Positions 1 to 14,119 of a stretch of 64,000 bases of DNA are shown here, one piece after another. The notes beneath the pieces are model-generated. The model was not told the origin of the DNA, ran no database searches, and saw only the letters and a program-made list of their open reading frames with translations. Each line of letters opens with the position of its first letter. Within the stretch, counting starts at the first letter, position 1. The translations under genes and the position numbers were made by a program. Origin of the DNA: a virus; the IMG/VR virus record IMGVR_UViG_3300025121_000011, positions 261,474 through 325,473 of that record; one strand, given 5' to 3'.

Positions 1-379
1 CTTGCGAACTTGGCACTGGCACAATACAACCTCTTGCACCGGGAAGGATGAATGCAGTCGAGACGGTTTCTCATGGTATACCATGAGAAAAGAATCTGAA
101 AAGGGAGAGGTGCTATACATGAGTAATCACAAGGCGCTGTAACTCTAAAAAGATCTTCTCCAGAGTAAGAAAAGGACATAGGAGTCCAGAATGATTCGAA
201 AGCATAGTGTCCGTGAAGTTGTAAAGGTCGCAGAAAGCGATTTCATGACGGAAGAGGAGAGGGCATATCGAAGTGATCGGTGGAGCCGGCGAAAGGGGAA
301 GATGAAGGGGAAGGGGAAACAAGAGGATCGCGGGAAAAACCGCGATTTTGATGAAGGGGGGTATTGAGAAGAGACGGGG

Positions 380-410
380 AGGGGCACGGAAATCCGTGCC
401 CTTCCTTTTG
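380..410 (+). terminator. rho-independent terminator
   Basis: GGGGCACGGAAATCCGTGCCC hairpin plus TTCCTTTTG. Confidence 0.5.
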
Positions 411-420
411 ATATATAAGG

Positions 421-456
421 TTGGCATAGAACATGCATTAAGCAAAGACCGTGCCA
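421..456. promoter_or_regulatory. nested-palindrome element (TTGGCA ... TGCATTAAGCA ... TGCCAA)
   Basis: family member 1 of about 16; conserved 13-nt core TTGCATTAAGCAA in either orientation flanked by TGGCA/TGCCA arms. Confidence 0.5.
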
Positions 457-517
457 ACGTGTATACAGATAAGTCTAAAAATATATTCTTCGTAGTAACT
501 AATCGACGGAGGTACCA

Positions 518-889
518 ATGCGAACCATTACGCGTATGTTTCTGATCCAGGGACTGTCAACCGTTGCCGGTGTCAGTGGTTGCACGATTCTGATCTCTGA
601 GATTGCGTTCCTTGAGGGTATCGATCCGATGTCCCTGGTAATCCTGGCGATTACATCAATCGTATCTGGAGGGGCATCTATCATTCTGATCATGACGCTT
701 CCCAAGGCTTCCAAGGTAGAAAGCTCCGCATATGTGGGCGAGGATACGGATGATATTGAAACGGAGGAGATGGCCGATCCTTATGCCTACTGGGATGCCT
801 ATGGTTCCGGAACCACTTACCCGGAAGATCGGGAAGCTATCATCGGTCGCATCGGAAACAATGGAATCGTGGTACGATTCGGAAAGTAA
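518..889 (+). CDS. hypothetical small membrane protein (hydrophobic N-terminal half, acidic C-terminus)
   Basis: ATG ORF with GGAGG SD 7 nt upstream; preceded by palindrome element and promoter-like module. Confidence 0.55.
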   Translation: MRTITRMFLIQGLSTVAGVSGCTILISEIAFLEGIDPMSLVILAITSIVSGGASIILIMTLPKASKVESSAYVGEDTDDIETEEMADPYAYWDAYGSGTTYPEDREAIIGRIGNNGIVVRFGK

Positions 890-916
890 TCTCAAGGGGC
901 TTTGCCCTATTCAATG

Positions 917-952
917 TGGCATAGAACATGCATTAAGCAAAGACTGTGCCAA
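917..952. promoter_or_regulatory. nested-palindrome element
   Basis: TGGCATAGAACATGCATTAAGCAAAGACTGTGCCAA. Confidence 0.5.
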
Positions 953-1040
953 GTCAAACACCGGCGGGAATAAGTTAACTCTAAAAAGATATCTTCCGAA
1001 GTAATGAATAGGTGTAAGGAAACAAAGCAAAGAGGCTCCT

Positions 1041-1724
1041 ATGAAAAGCGCTCACCACTCAAACGAGATCATTGATGAAATGATCGCTACCCGAAGGGAA
1101 TCAAACCCGGAAGAAGTCTGGACACGAGATGTTCCCGCGATTCACCAGAATCGCATTCTCGGAAATAATGTCACCGTGGCGGCGGAAAGTGATGCGGGGC
1201 GTGGTGCTCCGGTTCTTGATCTCTATGGATTGGTTCCAATCTGTGGGGGAGCGATTACCGATGAAGTGCTGATCTCTGTCAAGAGTACGGAAGGAGCCGA
1301 TCGGATCACGGGTAGAACCTGTGTGTTCACTACGGGAACTGAGAGGCACATCAGGGCGATTCTGGCGCAACTCATGAATCCTGACGTTTCAATCCCGGTG
1401 CTTTTCGTGCACCGAAACACCACGAATGGTCAATGGGTACAGACGTCTTTCGATGCCTGCAAAGTGGTCCGGGCCTTGTATAATCTTCAGGGTGAGGGAG
1501 ATTACTGCGAAGATTCTCCTGCGAAGTGGTCGACAGGAAAGCGGGGCGTTCCAATGGTGGTTCGTGTGCGAGAGCAGATCTATAAAGATACCGTCTATTA
1601 CTATCACCAGATTCGGTTCAATATGGCTCCGCTGATCGCCATGGGTTTGGTGCCAGAATGGCGAAAGGTGAATAGCCCGACACTTGAGTTGGACGACGAC
1701 ACCGATACGATCGCGTCAATGTAG
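1041..1724 (+). CDS. hypothetical protein
   Basis: 227-aa ATG ORF, SD AGAGG upstream, promoter module upstream, terminator hairpin downstream (1741-1768). Confidence 0.55.
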   Translation: MKSAHHSNEIIDEMIATRRESNPEEVWTRDVPAIHQNRILGNNVTVAAESDAGRGAPVLDLYGLVPICGGAITDEVLISVKSTEGADRITGRTCVFTTGTERHIRAILAQLMNPDVSIPVLFVHRNTTNGQWVQTSFDACKVVRALYNLQGEGDYCEDSPAKWSTGKRGVPMVVRVREQIYKDTVYYYHQIRFNMAPLIAMGLVPEWRKVNSPTLELDDDTDTIASM

Positions 1725-1783
1725 AATGTAGGTGTAAAGAAAGCCGTCCGGATGGGCGGCTTTTCGTTATTTCATAACTAATG

Positions 1784-1819
1784 TGGTATAAGTATTGCAT
1801 TAAGCAAGTATCATGCCAA
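1784..1819. promoter_or_regulatory. nested-palindrome element (degenerate arms)
   Basis: TGGTATAAGTATTGCATTAAGCAAGTATCATGCCAA. Confidence 0.4.
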
Positions 1820-1905
1820 CGCATGCATCTGGATAACTCTAAAAATATTTTCTGTAGAGTAATAAAGAACTGTGAGTAACCATCGTCTGACATTCGGGAG
1901 GCATA

Positions 1906-2136
1906 ATGTTTGGAATCTACCGTCTGCATTCAGGCCGACCCCGGCTGCATTACCGTGGAACACTTGAACATCTACTGGTAAAGTTGTGCGCCGATTCCAT
2001 GTATGCAAATGCAGCGCCAATGACAAGAGCGCGTGCATGCGGTATCGAGGGGACGATCGATGAAGTTACCGCATTCTTTGCGGCGGGTGGGAAGCGGTGG
2101 GGTGGCGGAGCGTACTACCTTGTTCAAGAGGCTTAA
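1906..2136 (+). CDS. hypothetical small protein
   Basis: 76-aa ORF, SD GGGAGG upstream, module upstream. Confidence 0.4.
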   Translation: MFGIYRLHSGRPRLHYRGTLEHLLVKLCADSMYANAAPMTRARACGIEGTIDEVTAFFAAGGKRWGGGAYYLVQEA

Positions 2137-2190
2137 AGGGTTCATCTCCAAAAATATATCGTCTTAAGTAATAAAGGAACACAGGAGAAG

Positions 2191-2436
2191 ATGATGCTCA
2201 CTTTGCGATATTTCACCCTTCGCGGGGACAAGATCAGCGTGATCAAGGCTGTTCGGTCGTTCACAGGTTTGGGCCTCAGGGAAGTAAAAGATGCTGTCGA
2301 AGATGCGAACCCGGGAAAAGTGATGGCGGATTATGATATCTTCACCATGAAACTTTATTATCCGAAGGAGCAAGAACAAGAGATTCGTAATGTCGCCTGT
2401 ATGTTGATGGATGTAAGTTCCGTGTTTCCCCATTAG
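2191..2436 (+). CDS. ribosomal protein bL12 (L7/L12) C-terminal-domain-like protein
   Basis: KISVIKAVRSFTGLGLREVKDAVEDANPG matches the L7/L12 CTD signature (IKxVRxxTGLGLKEAKDLVE); SD AGGAGA; terminator 2452-2486. Confidence 0.55.
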   Translation: MMLTLRYFTLRGDKISVIKAVRSFTGLGLREVKDAVEDANPGKVMADYDIFTMKLYYPKEQEQEIRNVACMLMDVSSVFPH

Positions 2437-2451
2437 CGCGAAAGAAATAGG

Positions 2452-2486
2452 AAGCCCCGGCGGTTGTTTCGCCGGGGTTTTTCTGT
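2452..2486 (+). terminator. rho-independent terminator
   Basis: CCCCGGCGGTTGTTTCGCCGGGG plus TTTTTCTG. Confidence 0.6.
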
Positions 2487-2496
2487 GTATCACTCT

Positions 2497-2531
2497 TGGC
2501 ACATAACTTGCTTAATGCAAGTGTCATGCCA
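2497..2531. promoter_or_regulatory. nested-palindrome element, core inverted (TTGCTTAATGCAA)
   Basis: same arms, core in opposite orientation. Confidence 0.5.
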
Positions 2532-2557
2532 GCATATAAATAAGTATCTTATGCCGT

Positions 2558-2610
2558 GGCGGCAAAAGAATCACAATAACTCTAAAAAGATATCCTCCGG
2601 AGTAACTAAG
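2558..2610 (+). promoter_or_regulatory. conserved promoter-like module (GGCGGCAAAAG box, TTAAC/ATCAC -35-like, CTCTAAAAAGATATCC, GTAACTAAG)
   Basis: one of about 20 near-identical modules about 40-70 nt upstream of gene starts; this one heads a 520-nt ORF-free transcript. Confidence 0.5.
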
Positions 2611-3133
2611 AGTTGCCAGCACAAAACGAGTAAAAGAAGTAAACGAGGAAAAGAATAAGTACCCGCTGGTCTCTCAAATCTTAGTAACAAAAAGAGGTGC
2701 ATATGCCTGGTTGATAAGGTTCTCACCTAATGTCGTCTAAAACTTTGGTTCCTTAAGTTGAGCGCGACTTCCGAGGCATCGGAAGGAAATACCGGCAAAT
2801 AACGGTTCTATGGTCGCGCCAGGGGGCGGGCCACTAAAAGAATCGTTCGCGCTCAGTCGAGAATAAGCAGGTTAAAGATACTTTTGCGCCGCTCGACAAC
2901 CTACTTCTGTCGATGAAATAACCCGCACACCGCTTTTTACATAGCCGCAACGGAAGGGGCACACCTGTTAGCTTTGCATATCCTAATATTCCATAGGGAT
3001 ATGTGCGGGCTGGAATCAACAGGGAAGTGCGAACCCGGTCAAGGCAAAGAGACGGAAGCCTGTTAGGGTTGATAGAGAGAGATAGGAATAAGATGCCCAA
3101 GGAGACGCGCGCTCCTTGGGTTTCTTTTTGTTT
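2611..3133 (+). ncRNA. candidate ~520-nt non-coding RNA (promoter module to terminator, no ORF)
   Basis: module 2558-2610 followed by an ORF-free GC-rich stretch with many local helices and a strong terminator. Confidence 0.4.
3095..3133 (+). terminator. rho-independent terminator ending the 2611-3133 ORF-free transcript
   Basis: CCCAAGGAGACGCGCGCTCCTTGGG plus TTTCTTTTTGTTT. Confidence 0.6.
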
Positions 3134-3142
3134 AAAAGTAGT

Positions 3143-3179
3143 TTGGCATGAGACTTGCATTAAGCAAAGGCCATGCCAA
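3143..3179. promoter_or_regulatory. nested-palindrome element (8-bp outer arms TTGGCATG/CATGCCAA)
   Basis: TTGGCATGAGACTTGCATTAAGCAAAGGCCATGCCAA. Confidence 0.55.
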
Positions 3180-3216
3180 TGTATATGCGTATGACTAATG
3201 AATGGATAGATATTGT

Positions 3217-3269
3217 GGCGGCAAAAGAATCACAATAACTCTAAAAAGATATCCTCTGGAGTAACTAAG
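3217..3269 (+). promoter_or_regulatory. conserved promoter-like module
   Basis: GGCGGCAAAAGAATCACAATAACTCTAAAAAGATATCCTCTGGAGTAACTAAGG. Confidence 0.5.
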
Positions 3270-3304
3270 GACTGTAAGAACCCTAACCACCAACGAGGTA
3301 CCTC

Positions 3305-3793
3305 ATGCGCCCTATCAAGCTTTCTCGAATCGTCATTCGCAGTGCCACCGTCGTTCGCTCTTGGCTTGAACGATGGAACGATTCCGCCCGTTCCATCTGG
3401 GAAGCTCAGGTTCCTGAGGGCCTTCCTCCGCTGGTTGTTTGCGAGGTTACCGTTCCGGGGGCATCGAAGGATGATGCGGAGAACCCCAATAAGGGGAATG
3501 TGGTAATGCTGGTCCCGACGGAAGAAGTGGACGACATGATGGAGGAGTTGCTTTTGCAGGCCAACGAGGGTCGACCGGCCACGGCGGCGGAGGTTGTCCG
3601 GAAGACGGCCACTTGGATCGATATTGGAACCGAAGACGCACCGAATCTGATTTTTTCGTTCAAGGTTTCTGAGGCTCCTGGCAGTCGAACAATCAAGGTT
3701 GCCGAGAGTGATCTTCCCCTGTTCCTTACCGGTCTCAATCTGAGGTTCAAGTCGTTGATTGTCCAGTGGAATGACGCCCATCCGGACAAGTAG
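3305..3793 (+). CDS. hypothetical protein
   Basis: 162-aa ORF after module 3217-3269; terminator hairpin 3815-3843; overlapping minus ORFs look like GC-rich shadow frames. Confidence 0.55.
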   Translation: MRPIKLSRIVIRSATVVRSWLERWNDSARSIWEAQVPEGLPPLVVCEVTVPGASKDDAENPNKGNVVMLVPTEEVDDMMEELLLQANEGRPATAAEVVRKTATWIDIGTEDAPNLIFSFKVSEAPGSRTIKVAESDLPLFLTGLNLRFKSLIVQWNDAHPDK

Positions 3794-3814
3794 AGAAAGA
3801 AAGAAAGAAAGGAG

Positions 3815-3843
3815 GGAAGGGGCGCATGCGCCCCTTCCCTTTA
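3815..3843 (+). terminator. rho-independent terminator
   Basis: GGAAGGGGCGCATGCGCCCCTTCC plus CTTT. Confidence 0.55.
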
Positions 3844-3898
3844 AACCTGTAGAATGAAGGGCGGATATATCCGTCCTTTTCGTGTATCTTTATTTTAG

Positions 3899-3935
3899 TT
3901 GGTATGGTTCTTGCATTAAGCATATATCATGCCAA
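3899..3935. promoter_or_regulatory. nested-palindrome element
   Basis: core variant GCATTAAGCAT. Confidence 0.45.
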
Positions 3936-3967
3936 CGCATATTATGTTAACACATACACATACCCAT

Positions 3968-4020
3968 GGCGGCAAAAGATTTGCAGTATCTCTAAAAAGA
4001 TATCTGCTGTAGTAACTAAG
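3968..4020 (+). promoter_or_regulatory. conserved promoter-like module
   Basis: GGCGGCAAAAGATTTGCAGTATCTCTAAAAAGATATCTGCTGTAGTAACTAAGG. Confidence 0.5.
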
Positions 4021-4043
4021 GGCTGTGAGAAACCACTAACAGA

Positions 4044-4085
4044 GTTACCCAACAGAGTTACCCAACAGAGTTACCCAACAGAGTG
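4044..4085 (+). repeat. 3x tandem 13-bp direct repeat CAGAGTTACCCAA
   Basis: three perfect copies immediately upstream of the acidic-protein gene RBS. Confidence 0.7.
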
Positions 4086-4093
4086 AGGTTCTT

Positions 4094-4318
4094 ATGGCTT
4101 TTTCTTTTGATGAATACAATAATCGTCCTTATACTTTCATCGCGGATCAAGATGAAGTAGATGACGATTGGTCAGACGACGATGATGATTGGAGCGAACC
4201 CTCTGAAAATGATATGTGGGAATCGTTCCCTGATGATGATGACGACTACACGACGAATGACCCTGACAACGACTATTACATAGAACCCGACTACACGGAA
4301 TCCAATAAGGACTACTGA
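4094..4318 (+). CDS. highly acidic small protein (D/E/W-rich), possible DNA-mimic-type protein
   Basis: 74 aa, about 40% Asp/Glu (DDDWSDDDDDWSEPSENDMWESFPDDDDDY); follows module 3968-4020 and a 3x 13-bp tandem repeat. Confidence 0.5.
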   Translation: MAFSFDEYNNRPYTFIADQDEVDDDWSDDDDDWSEPSENDMWESFPDDDDDYTTNDPDNDYYIEPDYTESNKDY

Positions 4319-4770
4319 TAAGGAATACTGAGGGATTGGACATCATTGGAGCGAGATGTCATGATGGTTCGCTCTACCCATGCCCCTTAAGTGGGTGTTA
4401 CCAACAAGGAGTTAGGAATGTATAAGAATAAGAATAAGAATAACTCTGGACGGGATTTATCCTGTTCACCAGCAGGATAAGCTGCTGGGAGCAAAGTAGG
4501 CCGTGAGAGCTTTGGATACCTTCTGTCTGACAGCAGAGGGCAAACGAAAAAGCAAGCCGAAAAGCTTGGTGTGAGGGATGCGAAGACAGAGACCTGTCAG
4601 GTCTGGTCGTTCACCTAAAACCCTCCCTTGGTCCGCCGTGTGTGCAGATTAACTTAAGAATGCGTGTCCGGATACGCAAACTGAGACACTGATGCGCACA
4701 TAGGGTAAGCGGGCCTATTTTAGTAACTAAAACGGAGAAAGTTAAAACAAAAAAGGAAATAAGCGATTCT

Positions 4771-4862
4771 GCCCTGGGTCTGATACAGTGGGGTTCGTCA
4801 CTTAGAAGGTTCATAACCTCTTGGACGACAACGACTGCCAGACCCAGGGCGTTTCATTGTTT
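4771..4862 (+). terminator. long-stem terminator-like hairpin
   Basis: GCCCTGGGTCTG ... CAGACCCAGGGC enclosing about 50 nt, followed by GTTTCATTGTTT. Confidence 0.45.
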
Positions 4863-4872
4863 AAAGATTACT

Positions 4873-4908
4873 TGGCATGAGACTTGCATTAAGCAAATGT
4901 CATGCCAA
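4873..4908. promoter_or_regulatory. nested-palindrome element
   Basis: TTGGCATGAGACTTGCATTAAGCAAATGTCATGCCAA. Confidence 0.55.
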
Positions 4909-4933
4909 CGCACGTATAAGCATTTTATACTCT

Positions 4934-4985
4934 GGCGGCAAAAGAATAACATCATCTTTAAAAATATATTCTTTGTAGTAACTAA
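4934..4985 (+). promoter_or_regulatory. conserved promoter-like module
   Basis: GGCGGCAAAAGAATAACATCATCTTTAAAAATATATTCTTTGTAGTAACTAA. Confidence 0.5.
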
Positions 4986-5004
4986 CATCTGAAAGGAGGC
5001 TGAG

Positions 5005-5877
5005 ATGGCAATGATTTCCAAAGATGAAATGCTTGCGCGAGTAGTTGACCCTATTCTTGAGGCAATGAAAGAGGGAAAGCTGCTATGGCTTCAAGGATGG
5101 AATGTGGGTGCGGGTGCGGGTCTCCCTTATAACCCGACCAAAGCATCTAATAAGCAAGCGTATCGAGGTGCGGTCAATAACATCTTGATGTGGTTTGCGT
5201 CCGCTGCTAATGGTTGGGGCGACCCTCGTTGGATGGGTTTTGCTCAAGCGAAAACAAAAGGATGGCGAGTTCGGAAGGGGGAGGAGTCGACCCAAATCTA
5301 TGCTCCAATCATGGGTTCGTATCCGATTGAAGAGAACGGCCAAAAGGTTTGGAGAAAATATGTCAAGGGCTTCAACCCTGTTCATGTTTTCAATGCCCAA
5401 CAGGTGGATGGAATCCCCGCGATTGAAAAGGCTGGAACCTTGGATGTCTCCACCGGATATGCTGCCGCAGAGGACATGTATAAGGCTATGAACGTGCAAA
5501 CGATTCATGGCGGTAATGTGGCTGCATATGCATATCAGGTTGACATCATTAGGATGCCGGAACCAGAAATGTTTGTGGGCGCAGATGAATACCACGCTAC
5601 GCGCTTGCATGAAATGGGGCATGCGACGGGGCACCCGTCTCGCATGGATAGAAGGATGTTCGGAACAGGGTTACAGGATTACGCTCAGGAAGAGCTTGTA
5701 GCGGAGTTGTTTGCTGCTTTCGCATGTGCAGACATTGGCGTATCCAAAGCTGAAATGACGCAGAATCATGCAGCATACCTCAAAAGCTGGCATGAGCGTC
5801 TAAGCAGGGAACCAAAAGCATTCATAGATGCCGTATCGGCAGCATGGGAAGCTTTTGAGTTTGTTCGAAAACTGTGA
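5005..5877 (+). CDS. ardC: ArdC-like antirestriction protein (ArdC N-domain plus zincin HExxH domain)
   Basis: N-terminal PYNPTKASNKQAYRGAVNNILMW matches the ArdC-N pattern (P.N..TG..YRG.N...L); C-terminal HEMGHATGH zinc-metalloprotease motif. Confidence 0.7.
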   Translation: MAMISKDEMLARVVDPILEAMKEGKLLWLQGWNVGAGAGLPYNPTKASNKQAYRGAVNNILMWFASAANGWGDPRWMGFAQAKTKGWRVRKGEESTQIYAPIMGSYPIEENGQKVWRKYVKGFNPVHVFNAQQVDGIPAIEKAGTLDVSTGYAAAEDMYKAMNVQTIHGGNVAAYAYQVDIIRMPEPEMFVGADEYHATRLHEMGHATGHPSRMDRRMFGTGLQDYAQEELVAELFAAFACADIGVSKAEMTQNHAAYLKSWHERLSREPKAFIDAVSAAWEAFEFVRKL

Positions 5878-6043
5878 TAGAGATTAATCTGGCAAAGAAG
5901 AGACAAGCGAAGAAGCTTGTTTCTTGCGTGAGATATTTGCATATGCACGCTTTGGAGTTGGTTCTTTTGTTTTTGGTGATAATTGTTTCGATACTGTTTG
6001 TTATCACCAGTTTTTAATAAAATAACGAGGTGCAGGGTTTGAG

Positions 6044-6080
6044 TTGGCACAGTTTTTGCTTAATGCAGTTATCGTGCCAA
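6044..6080. promoter_or_regulatory. nested-palindrome element (inverted core)
   Basis: TTGGCACAGTTTTTGCTTAATGCAGTTATCGTGCCAA; identical copies at 6662 and 7707. Confidence 0.55.
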
Positions 6081-6172
6081 TGCATACACACTAGTTTACT
6101 CTAAACTAGTTTACTCTAAAAAGATATCCTCTGGAGTAACTAATGATTGTAATCCGCTAAGGAGGTGTTTTA

Positions 6173-6607
6173 ATGGCAAAGTTTCTGATCGACTTCCGTG
6201 ATCCACCGAACTCCCTGGTCAAGTGTGTCAAGGCTCTTAAGAAGATTTCCGGAATGAGTTATAGGAGAGCAAAGGACGCCGCGATACTTACTGATCCGAT
6301 CGTTGTGGAGATTCCGATGTTCTCCGAGAACAACGAAATCTCCCAAGGGATGATTAGGACTTGGTTTGCAGAGGAAATCGGTTGGACTATCATGGTTGGA
6401 AGTCCCAAAATGCTTCCCGACCGAACAGGACTCTTCACAATGCACTTTCGGAACGGATCCCGGATGGATTCGGTAAGGATTGAAGTGTTCGAGTTGGTGA
6501 ACGATGGTAGTAGACCTGAGATTGATCGTTATTTCTTTTCCTATAAGGGAGATAGCCGTATGCAGAGCTTTTACAGCACGACCGATGACCACTATCTGAC
6601 GGATTGA
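6173..6607 (+). CDS. hypothetical protein
   Basis: 144-aa ATG ORF, SD AAGGAGG, module upstream, terminator 6616-6650. Confidence 0.55.
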   Translation: MAKFLIDFRDPPNSLVKCVKALKKISGMSYRRAKDAAILTDPIVVEIPMFSENNEISQGMIRTWFAEEIGWTIMVGSPKMLPDRTGLFTMHFRNGSRMDSVRIEVFELVNDGSRPEIDRYFFSYKGDSRMQSFYSTTDDHYLTD

Positions 6608-6615
6608 TACCCGGA

Positions 6616-6650
6616 AGAGCGGGGGCGCTTTGCGCCCCCTGCTCTTGTTT
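6616..6650 (+). terminator. rho-independent terminator
   Basis: AGAGCGGGGGCGCTTTGCGCCCCCTGCTCT plus TGTTT. Confidence 0.6.
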
Positions 6651-6661
6651 ATGTATCTGAG

Positions 6662-6698
6662 TTGGCACAGTTTTTGCTTAATGCAGTTATCGTGCCAA
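6662..6698. promoter_or_regulatory. nested-palindrome element (inverted core)
   Basis: identical to the 6044 copy. Confidence 0.55.
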
Positions 6699-6708
6699 CG
6701 CATATATA

Positions 6709-6760
6709 GGCGGCAAAAGATTAACAGCATCTTTAAAAATATATTCTTTCGAGTAACTAA
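6709..6760 (+). promoter_or_regulatory. conserved promoter-like module
   Basis: GGCGGCAAAAGATTAACAGCATCTTTAAAAATATATTCTTTCGAGTAACTAA. Confidence 0.5.
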
Positions 6761-6777
6761 TAGTTGAAAGGTAAATA

Positions 6778-7647
6778 GTGTGGTGTTCAACAACAGAAAC
6801 CTTTTTGAATATACTAAGGTGTGAAGATTTAAGGATGGATAACCTCAATAGGAGTAACTCAATGTCCAGTTCGTCTTTCGTCACGCTTATGTCTGTTGTT
6901 ATCGACCCCGCTGATCTACCTGCCCTTTTTACCGAGTTGGAGGACACTGCTGATCGTGTATGGTTGTCCCGGACCTGTGTTTGTGACCGATACACAATTA
7001 GGGGCGTGCCAGCAAGGAGGGTCGATGTTGTAATCGAGAACCGTTTGTCGACGACTAACCTTGCTGAGATTGATCCTTGCGAACGAATTGTAATGTCGGT
7101 CGTGGAAAAGGCCGGGCGCTTCGATGGTGCCATTCGTTGGCGTCTGACAGTTCGTGTCGTGCGTAGCATGGACCTTGTGATCCGCGGTGCCGATGGGTGC
7201 GTAATCAATCCGATTCCCGGTGGCCGTCTTGATGTTGAGTTGACATCAAATGGTAAGTATGGGAGTGTTCGCGTGACTCTATCTGACGGTACCGGCATTC
7301 GGTGGGATCAGAGTTTCGTTCGTCTTCGCTCTGACCTCGGTGATTACAGTCCTGCTCGGCTTGTGATGTGGCATGCCAGGAGATACTATGGTTTTCTTTT
7401 AGCCTCTGATGAGGGCTATCAGGAAGTGGTTGCCCTTGCTGATTCTTGGAAGATTCCAGGAGAGGCGTCCACACTTGCGGAAGCGAATCGGGCTGCATCT
7501 CGTGAACTGTACCGTCTTGCCCGTAATGGTGGATGGCGAAAGCTTACACTTAGGGAACGGACAAAGCTCGGTCTTTATGGTGAGGCACAGTGGATTCCTG
7601 AGAAGATCTATGCCCGCGCGCAGATGGAACATCGGATGGTAAGATAG
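6778..7647 (+). CDS. hypothetical protein (start uncertain: GTG 6778, alternative ATG 6835 or 6861)
   Basis: long ORF after module 6709-6760; ATG 6861 has the best SD (TAGGAG); terminator 7664-7696. Confidence 0.5.
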   Translation: MWCSTTETFLNILRCEDLRMDNLNRSNSMSSSSFVTLMSVVIDPADLPALFTELEDTADRVWLSRTCVCDRYTIRGVPARRVDVVIENRLSTTNLAEIDPCERIVMSVVEKAGRFDGAIRWRLTVRVVRSMDLVIRGADGCVINPIPGGRLDVELTSNGKYGSVRVTLSDGTGIRWDQSFVRLRSDLGDYSPARLVMWHARRYYGFLLASDEGYQEVVALADSWKIPGEASTLAEANRAASRELYRLARNGGWRKLTLRERTKLGLYGEAQWIPEKIYARAQMEHRMVR

Positions 7648-7706
7648 CGGTAAAAGAGCAGGGAAGAAACGGGCCTCTTCCGGCCTGTTTCATTTATATG
7701 TCCATG

Positions 7707-7743
7707 TTGGCACAGTTTTTGCTTAATGCAGTTATCGTGCCAA
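7707..7743. promoter_or_regulatory. nested-palindrome element (inverted core)
   Basis: identical to the 6044 copy. Confidence 0.55.
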
Positions 7744-7753
7744 TGCATACACA

Positions 7754-7806
7754 GGCGGCAAAAGATTAACAGCATCTTTAAAAATATATTCTTTCGAGTA
7801 ATATAA
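7754..7806 (+). promoter_or_regulatory. conserved promoter-like module
   Basis: identical core to the 6709 copy. Confidence 0.5.
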
Positions 7807-7843
7807 GTCTGTAAGCATCTACACACTCAAGGGGAGAATACTG

Positions 7844-8032
7844 ATGAAATACTCTGTCTACTCCAGATCAGCGAGGTGGTGGAATGGCAAAAAGTGGGTA
7901 ACCACTATGGAGGCGCTTAGCTTGCCGAAGAATGGTCAACTTTCTTCTGAGCGAGTATTTAAGACGCAAAAAGCGGCTCTTGCTGCGATCACATGTGAAG
8001 ATCTTGATATTAGGATTACCAACCAAGGATAA
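7844..8032 (+). CDS. hypothetical small protein
   Basis: 62-aa ORF, SD GGGGAGA, module upstream. Confidence 0.4.
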   Translation: MKYSVYSRSARWWNGKKWVTTMEALSLPKNGQLSSERVFKTQKAALAAITCEDLDIRITNQG

Positions 8033-8034
8033 AC

Positions 8035-8235
8035 ATGCCCACACACACCACCTGCATAGAACTGATTCGTCGTCCGCATGAAGTGAATGTTCGTCCATGT
8101 GGTGGAACGATGCGAGAGTCGAGTGCGATGATTCCAATCTATGCATCAAATCATAGAGGACATTGTATGCGACCAATCACATACAAACGAAAGACTGTAT
8201 GGAAGTGTGTTCGATGTGGTCATAGTATCGGATGA
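8035..8235 (+). CDS. small Cys-rich (zinc-ribbon-like) protein
   Basis: 66 aa with CxxC...CxxC spacing (CIEL...PCGG...CVRCGH). Confidence 0.4.
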   Translation: MPTHTTCIELIRRPHEVNVRPCGGTMRESSAMIPIYASNHRGHCMRPITYKRKTVWKCVRCGHSIG

Positions 8236-8245
8236 TTCGCCGAAA

Positions 8246-8299
8246 GGCGGCAAAAAGTTAACTTCTCCTCTAAAAATATATTTTCCAAAGTAACTAAGG
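8246..8299 (+). promoter_or_regulatory. conserved promoter-like module
   Basis: GGCGGCAAAAAGTTAACTTCTCCTCTAAAAATATATTTTCCAAAGTAACTAAGGG. Confidence 0.5.
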
Positions 8300-8331
8300 G
8301 CTGTAAGAAATCTTCAAACAGAGGGGCACAC

Positions 8332-8634
8332 ATGCTCTGTCAATATCTGGTTCTCGATCCAGAAAACAACGATGCCACGATTGGAATGGTAAGTGAAGCA
8401 GAAATCTGGATTGTGCGGAATGAATATGATATGTATCACACAGGCATCGCCTTGATTGATAGTGAAGTTCGGGAACGCGTAAGCGTGCAGGAACTTATTA
8501 AAGTGTGCGAGTCTTTGATTGCTTCTTTTAAAAAGACTTCAAACAATAGGGTGTCAGGATTAACACAAATGAGGGATTTTGTTGGTGATTTCAACCATCT
8601 GGCTGAACTGATGAATAAGTTGAAAGTTCTTTAG
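8332..8634 (+). CDS. hypothetical protein
   Basis: 100-aa ORF after module 8246-8299, SD GAGGGG. Confidence 0.5.
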   Translation: MLCQYLVLDPENNDATIGMVSEAEIWIVRNEYDMYHTGIALIDSEVRERVSVQELIKVCESLIASFKKTSNNRVSGLTQMRDFVGDFNHLAELMNKLKVL

Positions 8635-8709
8635 CCAACATTCGTATAACTTTTGATAAACTCTACAACCAAATCCATAACCCAACCAAACCAATAATCA
8701 GAGGTGATA

Positions 8710-9018
8710 ATGATTTCTCGACGCATGGTTCGAAGTCTTTCTCTTAGTCAGGCTGAGAATGTTTACAATGTCTTTGCTGATCGAGCGGACGAACTGCGCT
8801 CAGATGCATTTGATGCGATTTCGGCCATCAAGACTCCTGCTGGTATCAATGGATATACATTGATGGAACTTGTTGACATCGCTCGCGATATGAAGCAAAT
8901 GGAGCAGGCATCTGAGCGTGTGGGTACCGTTATCGACAACTGGGATACCGGTGGGATGCCTCCTCGCGATCCGAAGGGCAAGATGTCGAAGGAGCTTCAG
9001 AGTGAGCCTATCTGGTAA
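8710..9018 (+). CDS. hypothetical protein, paralog of 9620-9994 (shared NWDTGGxPPR C-terminal motif)
   Basis: ATG at 8710 with SD AGAGG (track start 8704 is GTG); C-terminal motif shared with the next gene. Confidence 0.5.
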   Translation: MISRRMVRSLSLSQAENVYNVFADRADELRSDAFDAISAIKTPAGINGYTLMELVDIARDMKQMEQASERVGTVIDNWDTGGMPPRDPKGKMSKELQSEPIW

Positions 9019-9438
9019 TAGAAAGTCGAGTGTATATACGATCGCGAAGGCTTAATGAAATGGTCGTGCTCGTAAATAGGATGTGCTTCAACTGTCAACA
9101 TTAAACCTCCTATCTTTTCCGACTTAAAATAAGAATAACCGCTAATGGACCCCGTTAGTTCCGCACATAGGAGCGAGGGGAAGTGTTGAAAAAGTTAGCG
9201 GGTAAGAGCATTGATAAATCTGCTTGAAAGTAGCTGCCCTGAGAACACCGCGGGAAACAACCGCACCCATAAACATGGGAACGATGCGAACAACGATGCG
9301 GACAGGCAAGTAGATTATCATAAGCTCCCATCATCTTGTTAAGCGAAAAGTGGACCGGATGTGTAGATGGACGGGCACATAGAGTGTAGCCTCTTGATTT
9401 ACCGGAAGCTTGTACAAGTATTAGGTTAAACTCTGAGA

Positions 9439-9468
9439 AGGCGGATGCTAATGTATCCGCTTTCTTCC
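9439..9468 (+). terminator. rho-independent terminator
   Basis: GGCGGATGCTAATGTATCCGC plus TTTCTTCC. Confidence 0.5.
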
Positions 9469-9478
9469 TTATTTGTAT

Positions 9479-9518
9479 TTTGGCACGATTTTTGCATTAT
9501 GCAGTTCTTGTGCCAATG
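9479..9518. promoter_or_regulatory. nested-palindrome element (core variant TTGCATTATGCAG)
   Basis: TTGGCACG ... TGTGCCAA arms. Confidence 0.45.
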
Positions 9519-9526
9519 CATATGCT

Positions 9527-9580
9527 GGCGGCAAAAAGTTAACTTCTCCTCTAAAAATATATTTCCCAAAGTAATTAAGG
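9527..9580 (+). promoter_or_regulatory. conserved promoter-like module
   Basis: near-identical to the 8246 copy. Confidence 0.5.
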
Positions 9581-9619
9581 GCTGTAAGATTCCTAAGAAA
9601 ACAAAAGTAGGAGGATCAA

Positions 9620-9994
9620 ATGATTACTCGGGCAATGCTTCTCGCTCTTCCTCGCCCTGTTGTTCAGACTCTTGGGGACCAGGTTAGTGTAGCGATTGAC
9701 GGTGTGCAGACAAAAGCATTTGAAAATCTGGTTTCGATCACCGGCAAATCTTCACATGATATCACCGCGGATGATCTCATTGCGCTGGCGGCTGCTGGAA
9801 CTAAGCTTCGCACGCTTACACAAGCCGATGAAAGGCTTAGTCTGCTTCTTGGCAACTGGGATACGGGCGGTCGTCCACCTCGAACGCATGGTGATGATAT
9901 GACAGACGACCCCTCATGGGAAGGCGACCCTGAGACGTTCTCGTCGCAGCCAGTAGACTACGAAGGCGAGTGGAGGGCAGGAGTGTGGCGATGA
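9620..9994 (+). CDS. hypothetical protein, paralog of 8710-9018
   Basis: SD AGGAGGA upstream; module 9527-9580 upstream; NWDTGGRPPR motif. Confidence 0.5.
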   Translation: MITRAMLLALPRPVVQTLGDQVSVAIDGVQTKAFENLVSITGKSSHDITADDLIALAAAGTKLRTLTQADERLSLLLGNWDTGGRPPRTHGDDMTDDPSWEGDPETFSSQPVDYEGEWRAGVWR

Positions 9995-10294
9995 AGACAA
10001 ATCGAGACGACAGCCAGAGCGATTACAACTATGATAGCAGACATGATAGCCGACGCCGACGGACGACGGAGGCGACGACGGCAGCACGACGACAGCGACA
10101 GGCCGAAAGAGAGGCGGACGATCGCCGGACGCTGGTCTTGATGATCGGACAGGAGAGATTTGACTCAGATATGGTCTCTACTGTAGAAAAGTAGTGGGAG
10201 TGTGCGTGCTAATGAATGAGTACACAGTGTTTGTTCAGTTTGTAGATGGATAAATCCCGGCGCCCGAACCGTATGCCGGGCAGAAGGAGTAGAT

Positions 10295-10786
10295 ATGATC
10301 ATCGATTGGCCGTGGAATGGCGAAGAGTTGGCGTTTGCCCATCTTCCCAATGAGGTGGTCTACGCGTGTGAATGCGAAAACCGGACGGCGTACTTCGATG
10401 TCGCCGGCATCTGTATTTTGGTTTCTGGCAAATGTGACGTGTATAGGCGTACACCATACCAACTGTTCGTCTGGCGCCCCAATGCCGAAGATGCTGAATG
10501 GTGGCAAGATATATTTCGTCACGGAGTTGAAAACCGACTCCGGGGAGAATCTGATTTTGCCCAGCCCCGGTACATTGATCCCTCTAATCAAGTCGCAGAA
10601 TGGGAAAAGGTTGAATGGCCTATTCCGCGGGAGTGGGTGGCGCATCTACCGCCCCCACTGGTACCTCGCACTTCTGACCCTCAATTTTACGGCGTGTTCG
10701 TCCTTTGTGATGATGAGTGTCACCAGCGCAAACTGTTGGAACGTTTCGCCGGAAATAAGTTTAAATGCCGTGCGTGGAACTTGTAA
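10295..10786 (+). CDS. hypothetical protein
   Basis: 163-aa ORF, SD AAGGAG 8 nt upstream. Confidence 0.5.
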   Translation: MIIDWPWNGEELAFAHLPNEVVYACECENRTAYFDVAGICILVSGKCDVYRRTPYQLFVWRPNAEDAEWWQDIFRHGVENRLRGESDFAQPRYIDPSNQVAEWEKVEWPIPREWVAHLPPPLVPRTSDPQFYGVFVLCDDECHQRKLLERFAGNKFKCRAWNL

Positions 10787-10848
10787 GGAGAAAACATACA
10801 AGTGTTCACTCATCGACTCTGGCGGTAAAAACATTACATGTATATGCA

Positions 10849-10884
10849 TTGGCATAGTTTTTGCTTAATGCATGTATTGTGCCA
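10849..10884. promoter_or_regulatory. nested-palindrome element (inverted core)
   Basis: TTGGCATAGTTTTTGCTTAATGCATGTATTGTGCCACC. Confidence 0.45.
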
Positions 10885-10905
10885 CCACGATTCCAAACAC
10901 CGCCT

Positions 10906-10959
10906 GGCGGCAAAAGATTTACTATAACTCTAAAAATATATTCTTTGCAGTAACTAAGG
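10906..10959 (+). promoter_or_regulatory. conserved promoter-like module
   Basis: GGCGGCAAAAGATTTACTATAACTCTAAAAATATATTCTTTGCAGTAACTAAGG. Confidence 0.5.
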
Positions 10960-10980
10960 ATTACATACAAACATCAAGAG

Positions 10981-11835
10981 ATGAAAAAAATGCCTATTTC
11001 TCATATAACCTCAGAAGAGACCGCAGAAAATATACGAAGGATTTTCACGGATCGTGTTGGCAAGATTCGTGCATCTACTTCGGAACTCTGTGGGTTTGTC
11101 GACTCGCCCGCCAAAACAGCGAAGATGTTTGGATTCAATCTTGAAGATGATCGCATCTATAGCGATGACGAGTGGTATGACCTCTGTGATGTAATATTTT
11201 ACGTCCGAGATATGACAGAGCTATTCAGGCGTACCACGGGCCTTCTCTCTGGTTGTAACTCTGATGCTGCATTGATGCTCTCTTTCTATGAGATCAGACT
11301 CCTGGCCAATATGCTGCGGTCTCCGAAAGTTGCACTGATGGTGCTGGCTTACATTTACAATGGAGCAATCAATCACGAACTTATGGCGATGTCCTATCTC
11401 ACGGAGATTGGAAAGTGCGTAACCGGAACCGTGGATTGTAAGGCCAACGCTTTCGCAGATGCGGCGTACCTCCTTGGGAACCATGCGGCTAAGCTTCTCG
11501 GGAGGAAGATGCCTGATCCGCTGGAGGGGCAGAGCCAGCAGAGCCACAGGTGGGCGAGTGTGGAAGAGATTCGTCAGTATGAAGATCGGATGCATGAGAA
11601 GTTTCTAAACATCACGCATTCTGCTCTCGAAAACCTCGTTGGTGTTAGCGGCCTAAAGGAAGGAGGACGCGTGTTCATCTTCAAGAGTAATGACTTGCCA
11701 GAGTTTTTGTGGGGGAAGAATGGTACAATCCTTGGTAAAGATGGAGATGACAGTTATTGGATTACACTGGCTCATCCTGGTCCCCAGGGTGAGACTGAAT
11801 GGCTGATAGATTATCATTACTTTAGAACGCTGTGA
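10981..11835 (+). CDS. hypothetical protein
   Basis: 284-aa ORF after module 10906-10959; palindromic hairpin downstream at 11858-11879. Confidence 0.55.
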   Translation: MKKMPISHITSEETAENIRRIFTDRVGKIRASTSELCGFVDSPAKTAKMFGFNLEDDRIYSDDEWYDLCDVIFYVRDMTELFRRTTGLLSGCNSDAALMLSFYEIRLLANMLRSPKVALMVLAYIYNGAINHELMAMSYLTEIGKCVTGTVDCKANAFADAAYLLGNHAAKLLGRKMPDPLEGQSQQSHRWASVEEIRQYEDRMHEKFLNITHSALENLVGVSGLKEGGRVFIFKSNDLPEFLWGKNGTILGKDGDDSYWITLAHPGPQGETEWLIDYHYFRTL

Positions 11836-11883
11836 GAACGCTTCCATAGACATTCAAATGTATCTGGGCTCATATGAGCCCAA

Positions 11884-11935
11884 GGCGGTAAAAGATTTAC
11901 AGCATCTCTAAAAATATATTCCTCATAGTAAGTAA
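11884..11935 (+). promoter_or_regulatory. conserved promoter-like module (GGCGGTAAAAG variant)
   Basis: follows palindromic hairpin TGGGCTCATATGAGCCCA. Confidence 0.45.
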
Positions 11936-11992
11936 TAGGCAAATGTTTATAAATCCGCCTCATTAAAGTGAAGCATACATAGGGAGATTATC

Positions 11993-12310
11993 ATGTTTGA
12001 TATTTGTCCAGGTTGTGGTTCTAATCAGAAAGGTGAACCGATTCCCGAGAAACTCAAACATACCGAGGCGTGTGGTGAAGGTCCATACTTCGGAAAAGAA
12101 GGCACCTGTGTAGATCCGGATCATCATTGTTATGGAAAAGAACAGGAGTATTTCTATCGTAGCGTTGGATATTATGCTTGTGATGTTACGTTGTTTTCCT
12201 TCTGTCCGGATTGTAAGATTGCATGGCATCGTTTTCTAAAGGGCGATTACTATTGGTATCTGGCTGCCAGGTACATGCAAGACGAGGGATATAAAGTCCA
12301 TGACGAGTAA
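11993..12310 (+). CDS. Cys-rich zinc-binding protein
   Basis: CPGCGS...C..C...CPDC motifs; SD AGGGAG; module 11884-11935 upstream. Confidence 0.5.
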   Translation: MFDICPGCGSNQKGEPIPEKLKHTEACGEGPYFGKEGTCVDPDHHCYGKEQEYFYRSVGYYACDVTLFSFCPDCKIAWHRFLKGDYYWYLAARYMQDEGYKVHDE

Positions 12311-12372
12311 AATACTGGTCGGATTTGTTCTGGTTGCAGTTGTTTCTGGTCTTATAATGGAGGGAGTGTGTC

Positions 12373-12588
12373 ATGCCTTCTCAAGAAGAACTCCTCGTGA
12401 CTAACGGAACAGTCCAAGTTCAAGCTCGAATATGCGGACATCGCTACATGGTAATGAGCACGCCAGTCCAGTGGTCAACATACATCTGTCGGATTTGCGG
12501 CCTGATGACAGACCTGATGGTTGTGCCTATGGAAATGCGTATTCAACAGGCAAGACTTGAGAAAAGAAACGCGCACAAAGCTCAGTAA
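12373..12588 (+). CDS. small zinc-ribbon protein
   Basis: CGHRYMV...CRICGL; SD GGAGGGAG. Confidence 0.45.
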   Translation: MPSQEELLVTNGTVQVQARICGHRYMVMSTPVQWSTYICRICGLMTDLMVVPMEMRIQQARLEKRNAHKAQ

Positions 12589-12669
12589 TCTCAAAAGCAT
12601 CTTCTGTGTATTGTGCGTTTAGGATTTTCTGGTAGAAATAACTCGTGCGAAAGCATATGGAGACAACTC

Positions 12670-12834
12670 ATGAACTATGGAAGTAAAGCGAACAAAGAAA
12701 GCATCAAAGCTATTGCTGTTGTTTTGGTAATGTTTTTTGGTGTTGCGGGCATCTTGTATGCCAGTTGGACTTGGGCAGAGTTTACATACGGAGATGGCAC
12801 TTGTGCCTTTTCTGATTGTGTAAAACTCAAGTAA
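12670..12834 (+). CDS. small membrane protein (real start probably ATG 12670 inside the track ORF 12613-12834)
   Basis: hydrophobic stretch AIAVVLVMFFGVAGILYASW; SD GGAGA 6 nt before ATG 12670. Confidence 0.35.
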   Translation: MNYGSKANKESIKAIAVVLVMFFGVAGILYASWTWAEFTYGDGTCAFSDCVKLK

Positions 12835-12945
12835 TCAGTCTTTACTAAGAAAAGGTAGGTACATAATCCTGTGGCTCGAACAGCGCTCCGCCGGATTTAT
12901 GCATGCCCGCTATCTTAGTATTTAAAGATTTTTGGTATAATATCT

Positions 12946-12981
12946 TGGCATAATTTTTGCTTAATGCAATATGTATGCCAC
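12946..12981. promoter_or_regulatory. nested-palindrome element (inverted core)
   Basis: TTGGCATAATTTTTGCTTAATGCAATATGTATGCCACC. Confidence 0.45.
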
Positions 12982-12990
12982 CCTTTTCAA

Positions 12991-13045
12991 GGCGGCAAAA
13001 ACTTAACTATAACTCTAAAAATATATCTGTTAGAGTAAGTATTAT
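12991..13045 (+). promoter_or_regulatory. conserved promoter-like module
   Basis: GGCGGCAAAAACTTAACTATAACTCTAAAAATATATCTGTTAGAGTAAG. Confidence 0.45.
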
Positions 13046-13062
13046 ACAAAGGAGAGATTCAA

Positions 13063-13343
13063 TGATTACTGCATATTTTATTTATTGTTCTACTGGTTGC
13101 TCATGCTGTTCGTATGACAACCATTTCAGCGGGCCTTTTTCTACGCGAGAGATTGCAGAGAAGATGAGGCAGGAGTTTATTGATGGTAGGAAGTTGTCCA
13201 GCCAGTTTTCTGTAGCTGGCAGATACTTAATCGAGGAAGAAGAAGCTGAACAGCTTTTAGATGGAAGGCTGATTATCAATGATCGAGTTTTTCCTGGATG
13301 GGCTGATGACGATGGGTGGAAAGAGGCATTCAAAGAGTGGTAA
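13063..13343 (+). CDS. hypothetical protein (track ORF 12957 trimmed to the SD-supported ATG)
   Basis: AAGGAGAG SD then ATG 13063; the upstream part of the track ORF overlaps the palindrome and promoter module. Confidence 0.45.
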
Positions 13344-13358
13344 TCGGAGGATTGTTCG

Positions 13359-13571
13359 ATGGGTAAGAAGATTAAGCATAGTGGTCAAAACACTGAAGAA
13401 GTAGATCGAGCTACTGCTCAGCGAGGCCAAGATCGCAAAACTCATTTTAAGGAAGGCGGATCAACTGAGGAGTGGACCGGAACCCATCGGGTTCATGATT
13501 CCCGTCCTCGTGGTTCGCGAAACCGAAGAGATTTGAGAGAACAAGCCATTCGTGAGAGCGCAGAGGAGTAG
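13359..13571 (+). CDS. small basic protein
   Basis: 70 aa, Arg/Lys-rich; SD GGAGG upstream. Confidence 0.4.
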   Translation: MGKKIKHSGQNTEEVDRATAQRGQDRKTHFKEGGSTEEWTGTHRVHDSRPRGSRNRRDLREQAIRESAEE

Positions 13572-13573
13572 TC

Positions 13574-13843
13574 ATGAAAGACGCGAGCATTATCAGGCTG
13601 AAGAAAGAACTTGAAATGCTTGCGCGCAGGCGGCATGCATTGGAAGGGCATCGACTTCTTGCAAATGTTTTAGAAAGCATTAGACGATATGAAGATGAAA
13701 CAGGAGATGTAGTGAGATGTTCCCTTGAATTTGTCGCTGAGCAAGATCAAGATTCTGTACGGCATGAATGGATTGGTGGCGGATTTAAGGCTGAGCCCCA
13801 ATGGTATCTGCAAAAGAATCATGTTGTTTTAGAAGAGATATGA
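13574..13843 (+). CDS. hypothetical protein
   Basis: SD AGAGGAG; operon-like packing with neighbours. Confidence 0.45.
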   Translation: MKDASIIRLKKELEMLARRRHALEGHRLLANVLESIRRYEDETGDVVRCSLEFVAEQDQDSVRHEWIGGGFKAEPQWYLQKNHVVLEEI

Positions 13844-13845
13844 GC

Positions 13846-14082: not shown

Positions 14083-14119
14083 TATGTGATCGCAATAAAT
14101 TAGAGTTAAAATGTTCGCA

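Follow-up and report, generated by a model that had tools for sequence, protein, structure and literature searches.

We describe a small gene at positions 2191 to 2436 of a 64,000-nucleotide stretch of viral DNA (positions 261,474 to 325,473 of the IMG/VR record IMGVR_UViG_3300025121_000011), which is referred to below as the window. Its product, here called the L12-like protein, is almost certainly a free, single-domain homologue of the bL12 head, i.e. of the C-terminal domain (CTD) that this ribosomal stalk protein possesses. A sequence-only reading of the window had described an 81-residue open reading frame (ORF) that matches the CTD of L7/L12, and the ORF is present on the plus strand exactly as stated. 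The match itself stands as homology far beyond chance, but it does not cover the whole domain: detectable homology to bL12 is confined to residues 10-47, which comprise helices α4 and α5 and the start of strand β2.

The Pfam profile PF00542 matches the L12-like protein with 37.1 bits (E 4.1e-9; gathering cut-off 25.9) and aligns residues 12-40 with profile positions 10-38 of 67. When the protein and its phage paralogue, described below, were compared with 28 genuine bL12 sequences by hhalign, a probability of 98.1% was obtained (E 9.6e-14) over 37 columns that correspond to residues 10-47. The profile match to the Ribosomal_L12 C-terminal domain that had been proposed as a check was thus found with both programs. 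A phmmer search of the PDB places the E. coli L12 CTD chains 2bcw, 3j9y and 1ctf at the top (E 2e-5), and a tblastn search of the 64-kb window with E. coli RplL returns the L12-like gene as its sole match (E 4.6e-7, 18/28 residues identical).

The only strongly homologous part is the α4-turn-α5 helix hairpin of residues 12-40, which the alignments equate with E. coli L12 residues 63-91 (codons 2224..2310, plus strand). In this hairpin, 18 of the 29 residues are identical to E. coli L12, and identity rises up to 21/28 with some gammaproteobacterial bL12 proteins. The motif quoted in the sequence-only reading, residues 14-37 (KISVIKAVRSFTGLGLREVKDAVE), fits the α4-turn-α5 motif K-[VI]-x-V-I-K-x-V-R-x-x-T-G-L-G-L-K-E-A-K-D-x-V-E. 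The factor-shifted residues of the bL12 CTD, 66-70 and 80-85 (PMC3505967), read ISVIK and LREVKD in the phage protein and VAVIK and LKEAKD in E. coli. Across the phage and genuine bL12 sequences, alignment A2 shows no variation at K65, I69, K70, R73, G77, G79, L80, E82, K84, V87 and E88, and hardly any at D85.

The β2-α6-β3 half of the protein, residues 41-81 (codons 2311..2433, plus strand, delimited by alignment A2 and the structural model), is remodelled. It is not alignable by profile, contains about 9+3 (~12) extra residues in comparison to bL12 in alignment A2, and is conserved only with the paralogue. This half includes the uL11-facing side of the bL12 CTD, where uL11 contacts K95 and the regions 92-95 and 103-109 (PMC3505967); in alignment A2, neither K95 nor the rest of this contact region is conserved in the phage protein, which carries insertions there.

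The absence of an N-terminal dimerisation and uL10-binding domain (NTD), which had also been claimed, was borne out: only 11 residues precede the CTD match, no PF16320 match was obtained, and PF00542 is the sole Pfam family at E<=10. The Ala/Gly/Pro-rich hinge is likewise absent, as the query is gapped over NTD and hinge in alignment A2 with 27 full-length bL12 sequences. In the ribosomal stalk, the NTD of bL12 must bind helix 8 of uL10. With NTD and hinge missing, incorporation of the phage protein into the stalk is structurally implausible, and the protein does not qualify as ribosomal. The bL12 equivalog model TIGR00855 scores the L12-like protein with 31.2 bits and the paralogue with 27.4 bits against a cut-off of 84.4, and the former is therefore not an rplL orthologue. 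Whereas bL12 possesses both NTD and hinge and is encoded in an rplJ-rplL(-rpoBC) operon, the phage protein has neither region and lies in an accessory cassette, with small hypothetical phage ORFs and an ArdC gene as neighbours instead of the operon partners.

An AlphaFold2 model, built on a 30-sequence alignment dominated by bL12, reached a mean predicted local distance difference test (pLDDT) score of 72; a model from the single sequence (pLDDT 45) was discarded. The predicted elements (strand 5-12, helices 14-25 and 29-39, strand 51-58, helix 59-71, strand 77-80) follow the order β-α-α-β-α-β, as in the L12-CTD/ClpS-like fold. The phage protein has the homologous hairpin and both factor regions in common with the bL12 CTD (E. 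coli RplL residues 53-120; PDB 1CTF; PF00542), and the same topology is predicted for it. Foldseek ranked 1CTF first in the PDB (probability 0.99, E 0.014), with a template modelling (TM) score of only 0.44-0.50. Among the viral models in BFVD, the best matches were phage 'bL12 C-terminal domain-containing proteins', including one of the crAss-like cr50_1 and one of 92 aa from Ralstonia phage RSJ5; phage ClpS ranked next. The likeness to ClpS, the N-degron adaptor of ClpAP, exists at the fold level only, and no sequence or profile match to the ClpS family was found in Pfam at E<=10. The model suggests, with moderate confidence, that all 80 residues (counted from the second start codon, see below) form one L12-CTD-like domain, the second half of which would have diverged beyond sequence recognition.

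Stand-alone and embedded phage bL12 domains have already been published, and the gene described here is a new divergent one. Mizuno et al. (2019) reported such domains from viral metagenomes as well as from seven cultivated phages (PMC6375957). The domain makes up the whole small protein in Ralstonia phage RSB3 (98 aa) and Dinoroseobacter phage DFL12phi1 (106 aa), and is more often embedded in proteins of 418-724 aa, such as those of Salmonella FSL SP-058/076 and Erwinia Ea9-2. The residues that contact EF-G, EF-Tu and uL11 were reported as conserved, interfaces for translation factors were proposed, and one peptide of a phage bL12-domain protein was detected in 70S fractions, which provides weak support (PMC6375957). 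Al-Shayeb et al. (2020) listed rpL7/L12 among the genes of huge phages (PMC7162821). Like the known virus-encoded proteins, the L12-like protein contains PF00542 without the canonical bL12 architecture and keeps the EF-G and EF-Tu contact residues; the varied genomic contexts of the family suggest repeated acquisition. The cultivated phages in Table 1 of Mizuno et al. have genomes of <80 kb, whereas the present gene resides in a >300-kb genome. New are the presence of two diverged paralogues in such a genome, the remodelled C-terminal half, and the location in an array of repeated promoter/terminator regulatory cassettes.

The L12-like cassette and its paralogue

According to the ORF list, the coding sequence for the stand-alone L12-CTD-like protein spans 2191..2436 on the plus strand, stop included, and encodes 81 aa; its translation, as read from the sequence and the ORF list, is MMLTLRYFTLRGDKISVIKAVRSFTGLGLREVKDAVEDANPGKVMADYDIFTMKLYYPKEQEQEIRNVACMLMDVSSVFPH. 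Sequence reading places a Shine-Dalgarno motif, AGGAG, at 2183..2187 on the plus strand, 3 nt ahead of ATG 2191 and 6 nt ahead of ATG 2194. The second ATG is the likelier start because of this wider spacing, and public gene finders call the corresponding 80-aa form (P0001). At least 24 metagenome contigs from several groundwater samples carry a gene for the identical protein; the longest of these contigs, among them JGI 3300025087 Ga0208957_1000006, measure 305-352 kb.

The cassette consists, in this order and all on the plus strand, of a regulatory module (1784-1887), a 76-aa ORF (1906-2136), the L12-like gene and a terminator (2455-2484). The module copy at 1784..1887, defined by repeat families D1-D6 and alignment A4, contains a palindrome, TGGyA-N7-TGCATTAAGCA-N7-TGCCA, followed by a CTCTAAAAAkATAT...AGTAA block, and is presumed to be the promoter or operator of the unit formed by the 76-aa ORF and the L12-like gene. 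As neither a terminator nor a module lies between these two genes, they are probably co-transcribed. The 76-aa ORF at 1906..2136 is preceded by a GGGAGG ribosome-binding site and is called by gene finders on several contigs. It was considered as a supplier of an L12-NTD-like function and rejected, with no match in Pfam, NCBIfam or PADLOC. The intrinsic terminator of the L12-like gene (2455..2484) comprises an 8-bp all-GC stem, CCCCGGCG/CGCCGGGG, and a subsequent TTTTTCT run. The next module copy (2493..2612, plus strand) forms the 3' border of the cassette and opens the following unit, which is devoid of ORFs.

A second L12-CTD-like gene (L002:7239-7505) is located 2.7 kb upstream of the target gene and just outside the window. 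It encodes 87/88 aa that are 51% identical to the L12-like protein and match PF00542 with E 4.9e-8. Both genes have an ATGATG start, a terminator hairpin and a downstream module in common, which indicates cassette duplication; the Shine-Dalgarno motif of the paralogue, AGGAGG, occupies the same place as the AGGAG of the target. The hydrophobic pattern is kept over the full length of both paralogues and their frames are intact. Nei-Gojobori estimates of the ratio of non-synonymous to synonymous substitutions (dN/dS) between them amount to 0.63 for the whole sequence, 0.31 for the hairpin and 0.86 for the C-terminal half. These values come from a small sample (40 codons in the C-terminal half), are noisy and are indicative only.

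A third, diverged copy was considered in a 144-aa protein encoded at 6173-6607 (N-terminus ...LVKCVKALKKISGMSYRRAKDAA). This protein is the best non-self match of a small hidden Markov model, and its N-terminus, KFLIDF…LVKCVKALKKISGMSYRRAKDAAIL…PIVVEIPMF, superficially resembles β1-α4-α5-β2 of the L12 CTD. A relationship is not supported, with an hmmsearch E-value of 0.81, no Pfam match and an hhalign probability of 9.6%.

Relatives outside the ribosome and candidate modes of action

A word-indexed protein search returned the L12-like protein itself only, and its relatives surfaced in an exhaustive phmmer search of 1.84 billion representatives, which retrieved 963 proteins at E<=1e-3. The description of repeats is based on the best 150 of these 963: with the exception of query and paralogue, every one of them repeats the motif 2-7 times, at lengths of 96-1056 aa. 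Among these bacterial proteins, inspection and Pfam distinguish two types, i.e. tandem whole L12-CTD domains and hairpin-only repeats. In Pfam scans, repeat proteins show 3-7 full PF00542 domains joined to LRV/HEAT repeats, to pentapeptide repeats or to a PNP_UDP_1 phosphorylase; DUF6793 is a further Pfam family with which the hairpin overlaps. Judged by eye, P0008 combines a Sec-type signal peptide with a pair of cysteines in every repeat, and the tail of P0003 is PEP-CTERM-like. Moreover, four PHROG families without assigned function carry the hairpin at different positions, and at 14 IMG/VR loci it is found in varied proteins of 120-225 aa, where it is N-terminal, C-terminal or repeated. 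The few papers found mention L12-CTD repeat proteins in passing only, as a domain module, and the 'ClpS-ribosomal L7/L12 domain' has been treated as a module in non-ribosomal contexts (bioRxiv 10.1101/2025.01.14.632903).

The α4-α5 residues are as conserved in these non-ribosomal repeat proteins as in bL12. By hand counts, the query is identical to the best non-ribosomal repeats in 20/30 positions and to the best genuine bL12 in 21/28; since these identities are equal, descent from bL12 and descent from non-ribosomal repeats are not separated. Because of the equal conservation, the motif, to which the literature has also appealed, does not by itself indicate GTPase binding either. The phage protein and the non-ribosomal proteins have the motif in common at ~20/30 identity; the latter are multi-repeat and often fused or equipped with export-like signals, whereas the former consists of one domain, the C-terminal half of which is unique.

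IF2, EF-Tu, EF-G, RF3 and EF4 all dock on the bL12 CTD (PMC3505967; PMC10931766, citing Helgstrand 2007 and Diaconu 2005). Based on the sequence comparisons, the most likely mode of action, which we put forward tentatively, is that the phage protein acts in trans as a soluble mimic of the stalk head. Its α4-α5 face would engage translational GTPases of the host, or a GTPase-like partner, and this binding would modulate the delivery of factors to ribosomes during infection, or would shield the factors. Action in trans is suggested because the α4-α5 face that contacts EF-Tu, EF-G, IF2, RF3 and EF4 is kept, the uL11 face is remodelled and the NTD is absent.

Several points weigh against the stalk-head mimic. 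The strongest is the equal conservation of the α4-α5 residues in non-ribosomal proteins with 2-7 repeats, some of them export-like by eye, so that the motif may be fold-determining or may serve other partners. Conservation is lacking on the β2/α6 side, which docks on uL11 in bL12. Between the paralogues, evolution of the C-terminal half is close to neutral, as far as a noisy dN/dS of 0.86 over 40 codons is indicative. The structural model is only moderate (pLDDT 72 on a bL12-dominated alignment, 45 from the single sequence; TM 0.44-0.50 to 1CTF). Genes for the candidate partners EF-Tu, uL10 and uL11 were not found in the 64-kb window by tblastn and Pfam, and to our knowledge GTPase binding has been demonstrated for no viral bL12 domain. 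The isolated L12 CTD binds EF-G and EF4 with a dissociation constant of 0.1-0.4 mM (PMC3505967), and a monomeric competitor would therefore need very high expression or a better affinity. In addition, Mizuno et al. (2019) did not succeed in affinity-purifying ribosomes that carry the tagged phage bL12 protein (PMC6375957). Thus, the proposal in the sequence-only reading that a free head competes for or recruits translation GTPases is weakened by the low affinity, the motif in non-ribosomal proteins and the unconserved β2/α6 side, while its identification of a homologue of the factor-binding CTD holds.

It is almost as likely that the protein is a generic L12-CTD/ClpS-like interaction module, the partner of which would be another host or phage protein that it serves, for example, as an adaptor or inhibitor. 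In function, it would then be grouped with the non-ribosomal L12-CTD and hairpin-repeat proteins and with the small hairpin-bearing phage proteins. The dominance of multi-repeat non-ribosomal proteins among the best 150 of the 963 matches, the Pfam-confirmed fusions, the overlap with DUF6793, the varied small proteins of the PHROG families and IMG/VR loci, the published non-ribosomal use of the domain and the equal identities to both groups all point in this direction. The signals in P0008 and P0003, if right, would imply action where no translation GTPase exists; however, they were judged by eye alone, and cytoplasmic multi-repeat proteins could themselves be multivalent GTPase binders. Translational GTPases and uL11 are also the only experimentally established ligand class of this surface, with no alternative partner known.

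It is distinctly unlikely that the free head serves as an anti-defence decoy. By mimicry of the bL12 CTD, such a decoy would absorb or mislead a host toxin or abortive-infection effector whose docking site is the stalk head or the EF-Tu/L12 interface, and it would protect translation instead of modulating it. The array includes an ArdC-type anti-restriction gene (5005-5877) and a gene for a very acidic 74-aa protein (4094-4318), an RNA-repair gene set is present in the window, and duplication followed by fast divergence outside the hairpin (dN/dS 0.86) resembles an arms-race pattern. This support is purely contextual, though, the dN/dS value stems from 40 codons, PADLOC returned nothing for the L12-like protein and its neighbours, and we know of no defence system that targets the bL12 CTD.

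That the gene is a decaying remnant of a captured rplL, retained as an ORFan without a function, is very improbable. Recognisable homology does extend over only ~37 residues, dN/dS is high in the C-terminal half, and full-length relatives, the paralogue excepted, are distant (37-39% identity). Against this stand two intact paralogues with a full-length hydrophobic pattern and the same start, ribosome-binding site and terminator, a hairpin dN/dS of 0.31, the identical protein on at least 24 contigs from several samples, and a predicted fold that is complete. Finally, the label 'phage ribosomal protein L7/L12' is usually taken to mean a genuine stalk protein that takes the place of host bL12 on the 50S subunit, as the Pfam Ribosomal_L12 match and the single phage bL12-domain peptide in 70S fractions (PMC6375957) might suggest. 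This reading is effectively refuted by the missing anchoring domain; the missing hinge, the TIGR00855 score of 31.2 against 84.4 bits and the unconserved, insertion-bearing uL11-contact region also speak against it.

The phage genome and its cassette array

The L12-like gene is very probably phage-encoded, as the sequence-only reading had assumed: it lies on contigs of 305-352 kb with near-uniform strand orientation, tRNA genes and PHROG matches. The viral assignment is strong but indirect, because no virion gene was found within the 64-kb window. Nearly all window genes are located on the plus strand, and the PHROG matches comprise an ATP-dependent DNA ligase, an RNA ligase, an ArdC-type anti-restriction protein, a NinI-like phosphatase and a KVP40/nt-1-type RNA-binding protein. 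A megablast search with window positions 1-12000 found no DNA-level relative among 50,697 isolate-phage records, and tblastn of the L12-like protein against the same records yielded 7 weak records only and no close relative. The best of these matches is a domain in a ~710-aa protein of the Enterobacter phages SABI/SonariX (38.8% over aa 13-79). Together with the CTD of a 150-aa IMG/VR protein, this domain represents the nearest full-length relatives besides the paralogue, at 37-39% identity.

The first ~21 kb of the window form an array of short units, each behind a repeated module of ~130 nt. About 20 module copies occur between window positions 418 and 21150, ahead of nearly every short plus-strand unit, and many units are closed by terminators that consist of a hairpin and a T-run. 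Intergenic copies are found, for example, at 2493-2612, 3140-3271, 6041-6146, 6659-6763, 7704-7808, 9477-9581, 10846-10960, 12942-13045 and 15121-15244. The general layout of the module is a 35-bp palindrome, TGGCA-N7-TGCwTwAwGCA-N7-TGCCA, followed by GGCGGCAAAAG and then by CTCTAAAAAkATAT-N7-9-AGTAAC. Each half of the palindrome matches the sigma-54 -24/-12 consensus exactly, and the pattern TGGCAY-N5-TTGCW occurs 18 times, always within 441-18325, against 0.24 expected occurrences. The modules could represent an array of sigma-54-type promoters, although phage genes do not usually have these; it is equally conceivable that the module serves a dimeric regulator as its operator, beside a phage-specific promoter. 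In layout, the array is analogous to the PeSL promoter-terminator cassettes, which shuffle genes in T4-type phages (PMC2839356, PMC4122927). The array genes are presumably early or host-takeover genes.

Although equipped with a promoter module and a terminator (3095-3121), the unit directly after the target gene (2613-3121) contains no plus-strand ORF of >30 aa. It matches no Rfam family at the gathering score, and its RNA fold is more stable than that of shuffled sequences (z = -2.73). The unit is therefore listed here as a candidate for a phage non-coding RNA of ~480 nt. Two cassettes downstream of the target, the region 4094-4318 encodes the 74-aa, extremely acidic and Trp/Tyr-rich protein (…DEVDDDWSDDDDDWSEPSENDMWESFPDDDDDY…), which precedes the ArdC-like gene at 5005-5877 and has no Pfam match. 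A DNA-mimic type of anti-restriction protein is possible.

The G+C content is 43-48% in positions 1-20000, the repeat-rich accessory array, and shifts sharply to 32-41% in positions 20000-64000. The GC skew is positive across the window, consistent with a single direction of transcription or replication. A match resembling EF-Tu domain II at 10239-10667 was considered as a partner of the L12-like protein and rejected, with a tblastn E-value of 0.032 and no Pfam support.

A nucleic-acid repair set is encoded at 35722-37813, 47882-49057, 50283-51158 and 58709-60160. It includes a radical-SAM protein, two ligases, one for RNA (phrog_548) and one ATP-dependent for DNA, a NinI-like phosphoesterase with an additional match to an RNA-ligase family, and a 483-aa RNA-binding protein with ~41% identity to a KVP40/nt-1 vibriophage protein. 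This composition suggests counter-measures against defences that cleave tRNA or other RNA. ARAGORN predicts 4 tRNA genes in the window and Rfam 8, located in the regions 54038-57320 and 16751-19940. Several of the additional Rfam matches are short or unusually long (e.g. 56568-56681, 114 nt), and the tRNA-Met predicted by ARAGORN at 55196-55279 has no Rfam counterpart; the discordant calls may represent degenerate, intron-containing or tRNA-like elements.

Further local duplications belong to the repeat families D9-D11. In the region 24713-25284, repeats of 187 nt and 50 nt recur ~300 nt apart with 80-84% identity, which suggests a tandem duplication of small genes. A 65-nt segment is present at both 17680-17744 and 22851-22915, 5.2 kb apart, with 91% identity.

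Implications for viral bL12 domains

Viral bL12 domains have been catalogued since 2019 without a demonstrated function. The L12-like protein is an 80-aa, head-only, duplicated protein that, with no anchoring domain, is not expected to be held on the ribosome, and it therefore offers a clean, minimal test case for GTPase binding in trans. At the same time, a Ribosomal_L12 Pfam match in a virus calls for caution before it is read as a 'ribosomal protein' or as a sign of translational takeover, because hundreds of multi-repeat proteins outside the ribosome, some of them apparently exported, conserve the factor-binding motif just as well.

A bolder proposal, which we consider rather unlikely, is that the two paralogues are dedicated trans ligands of host GTPases, for instance one for EF-Tu and the other for EF-G/IF2, or decoys that would keep a host abortive-infection effector away from these factors, and that they would be expressed from early cassettes to reprogramme or protect translation. 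If this were shown, the entire class of viral bL12 domains would for the first time have a demonstrated function, which would by implication also concern the widespread non-ribosomal L12-CTD repeat proteins.

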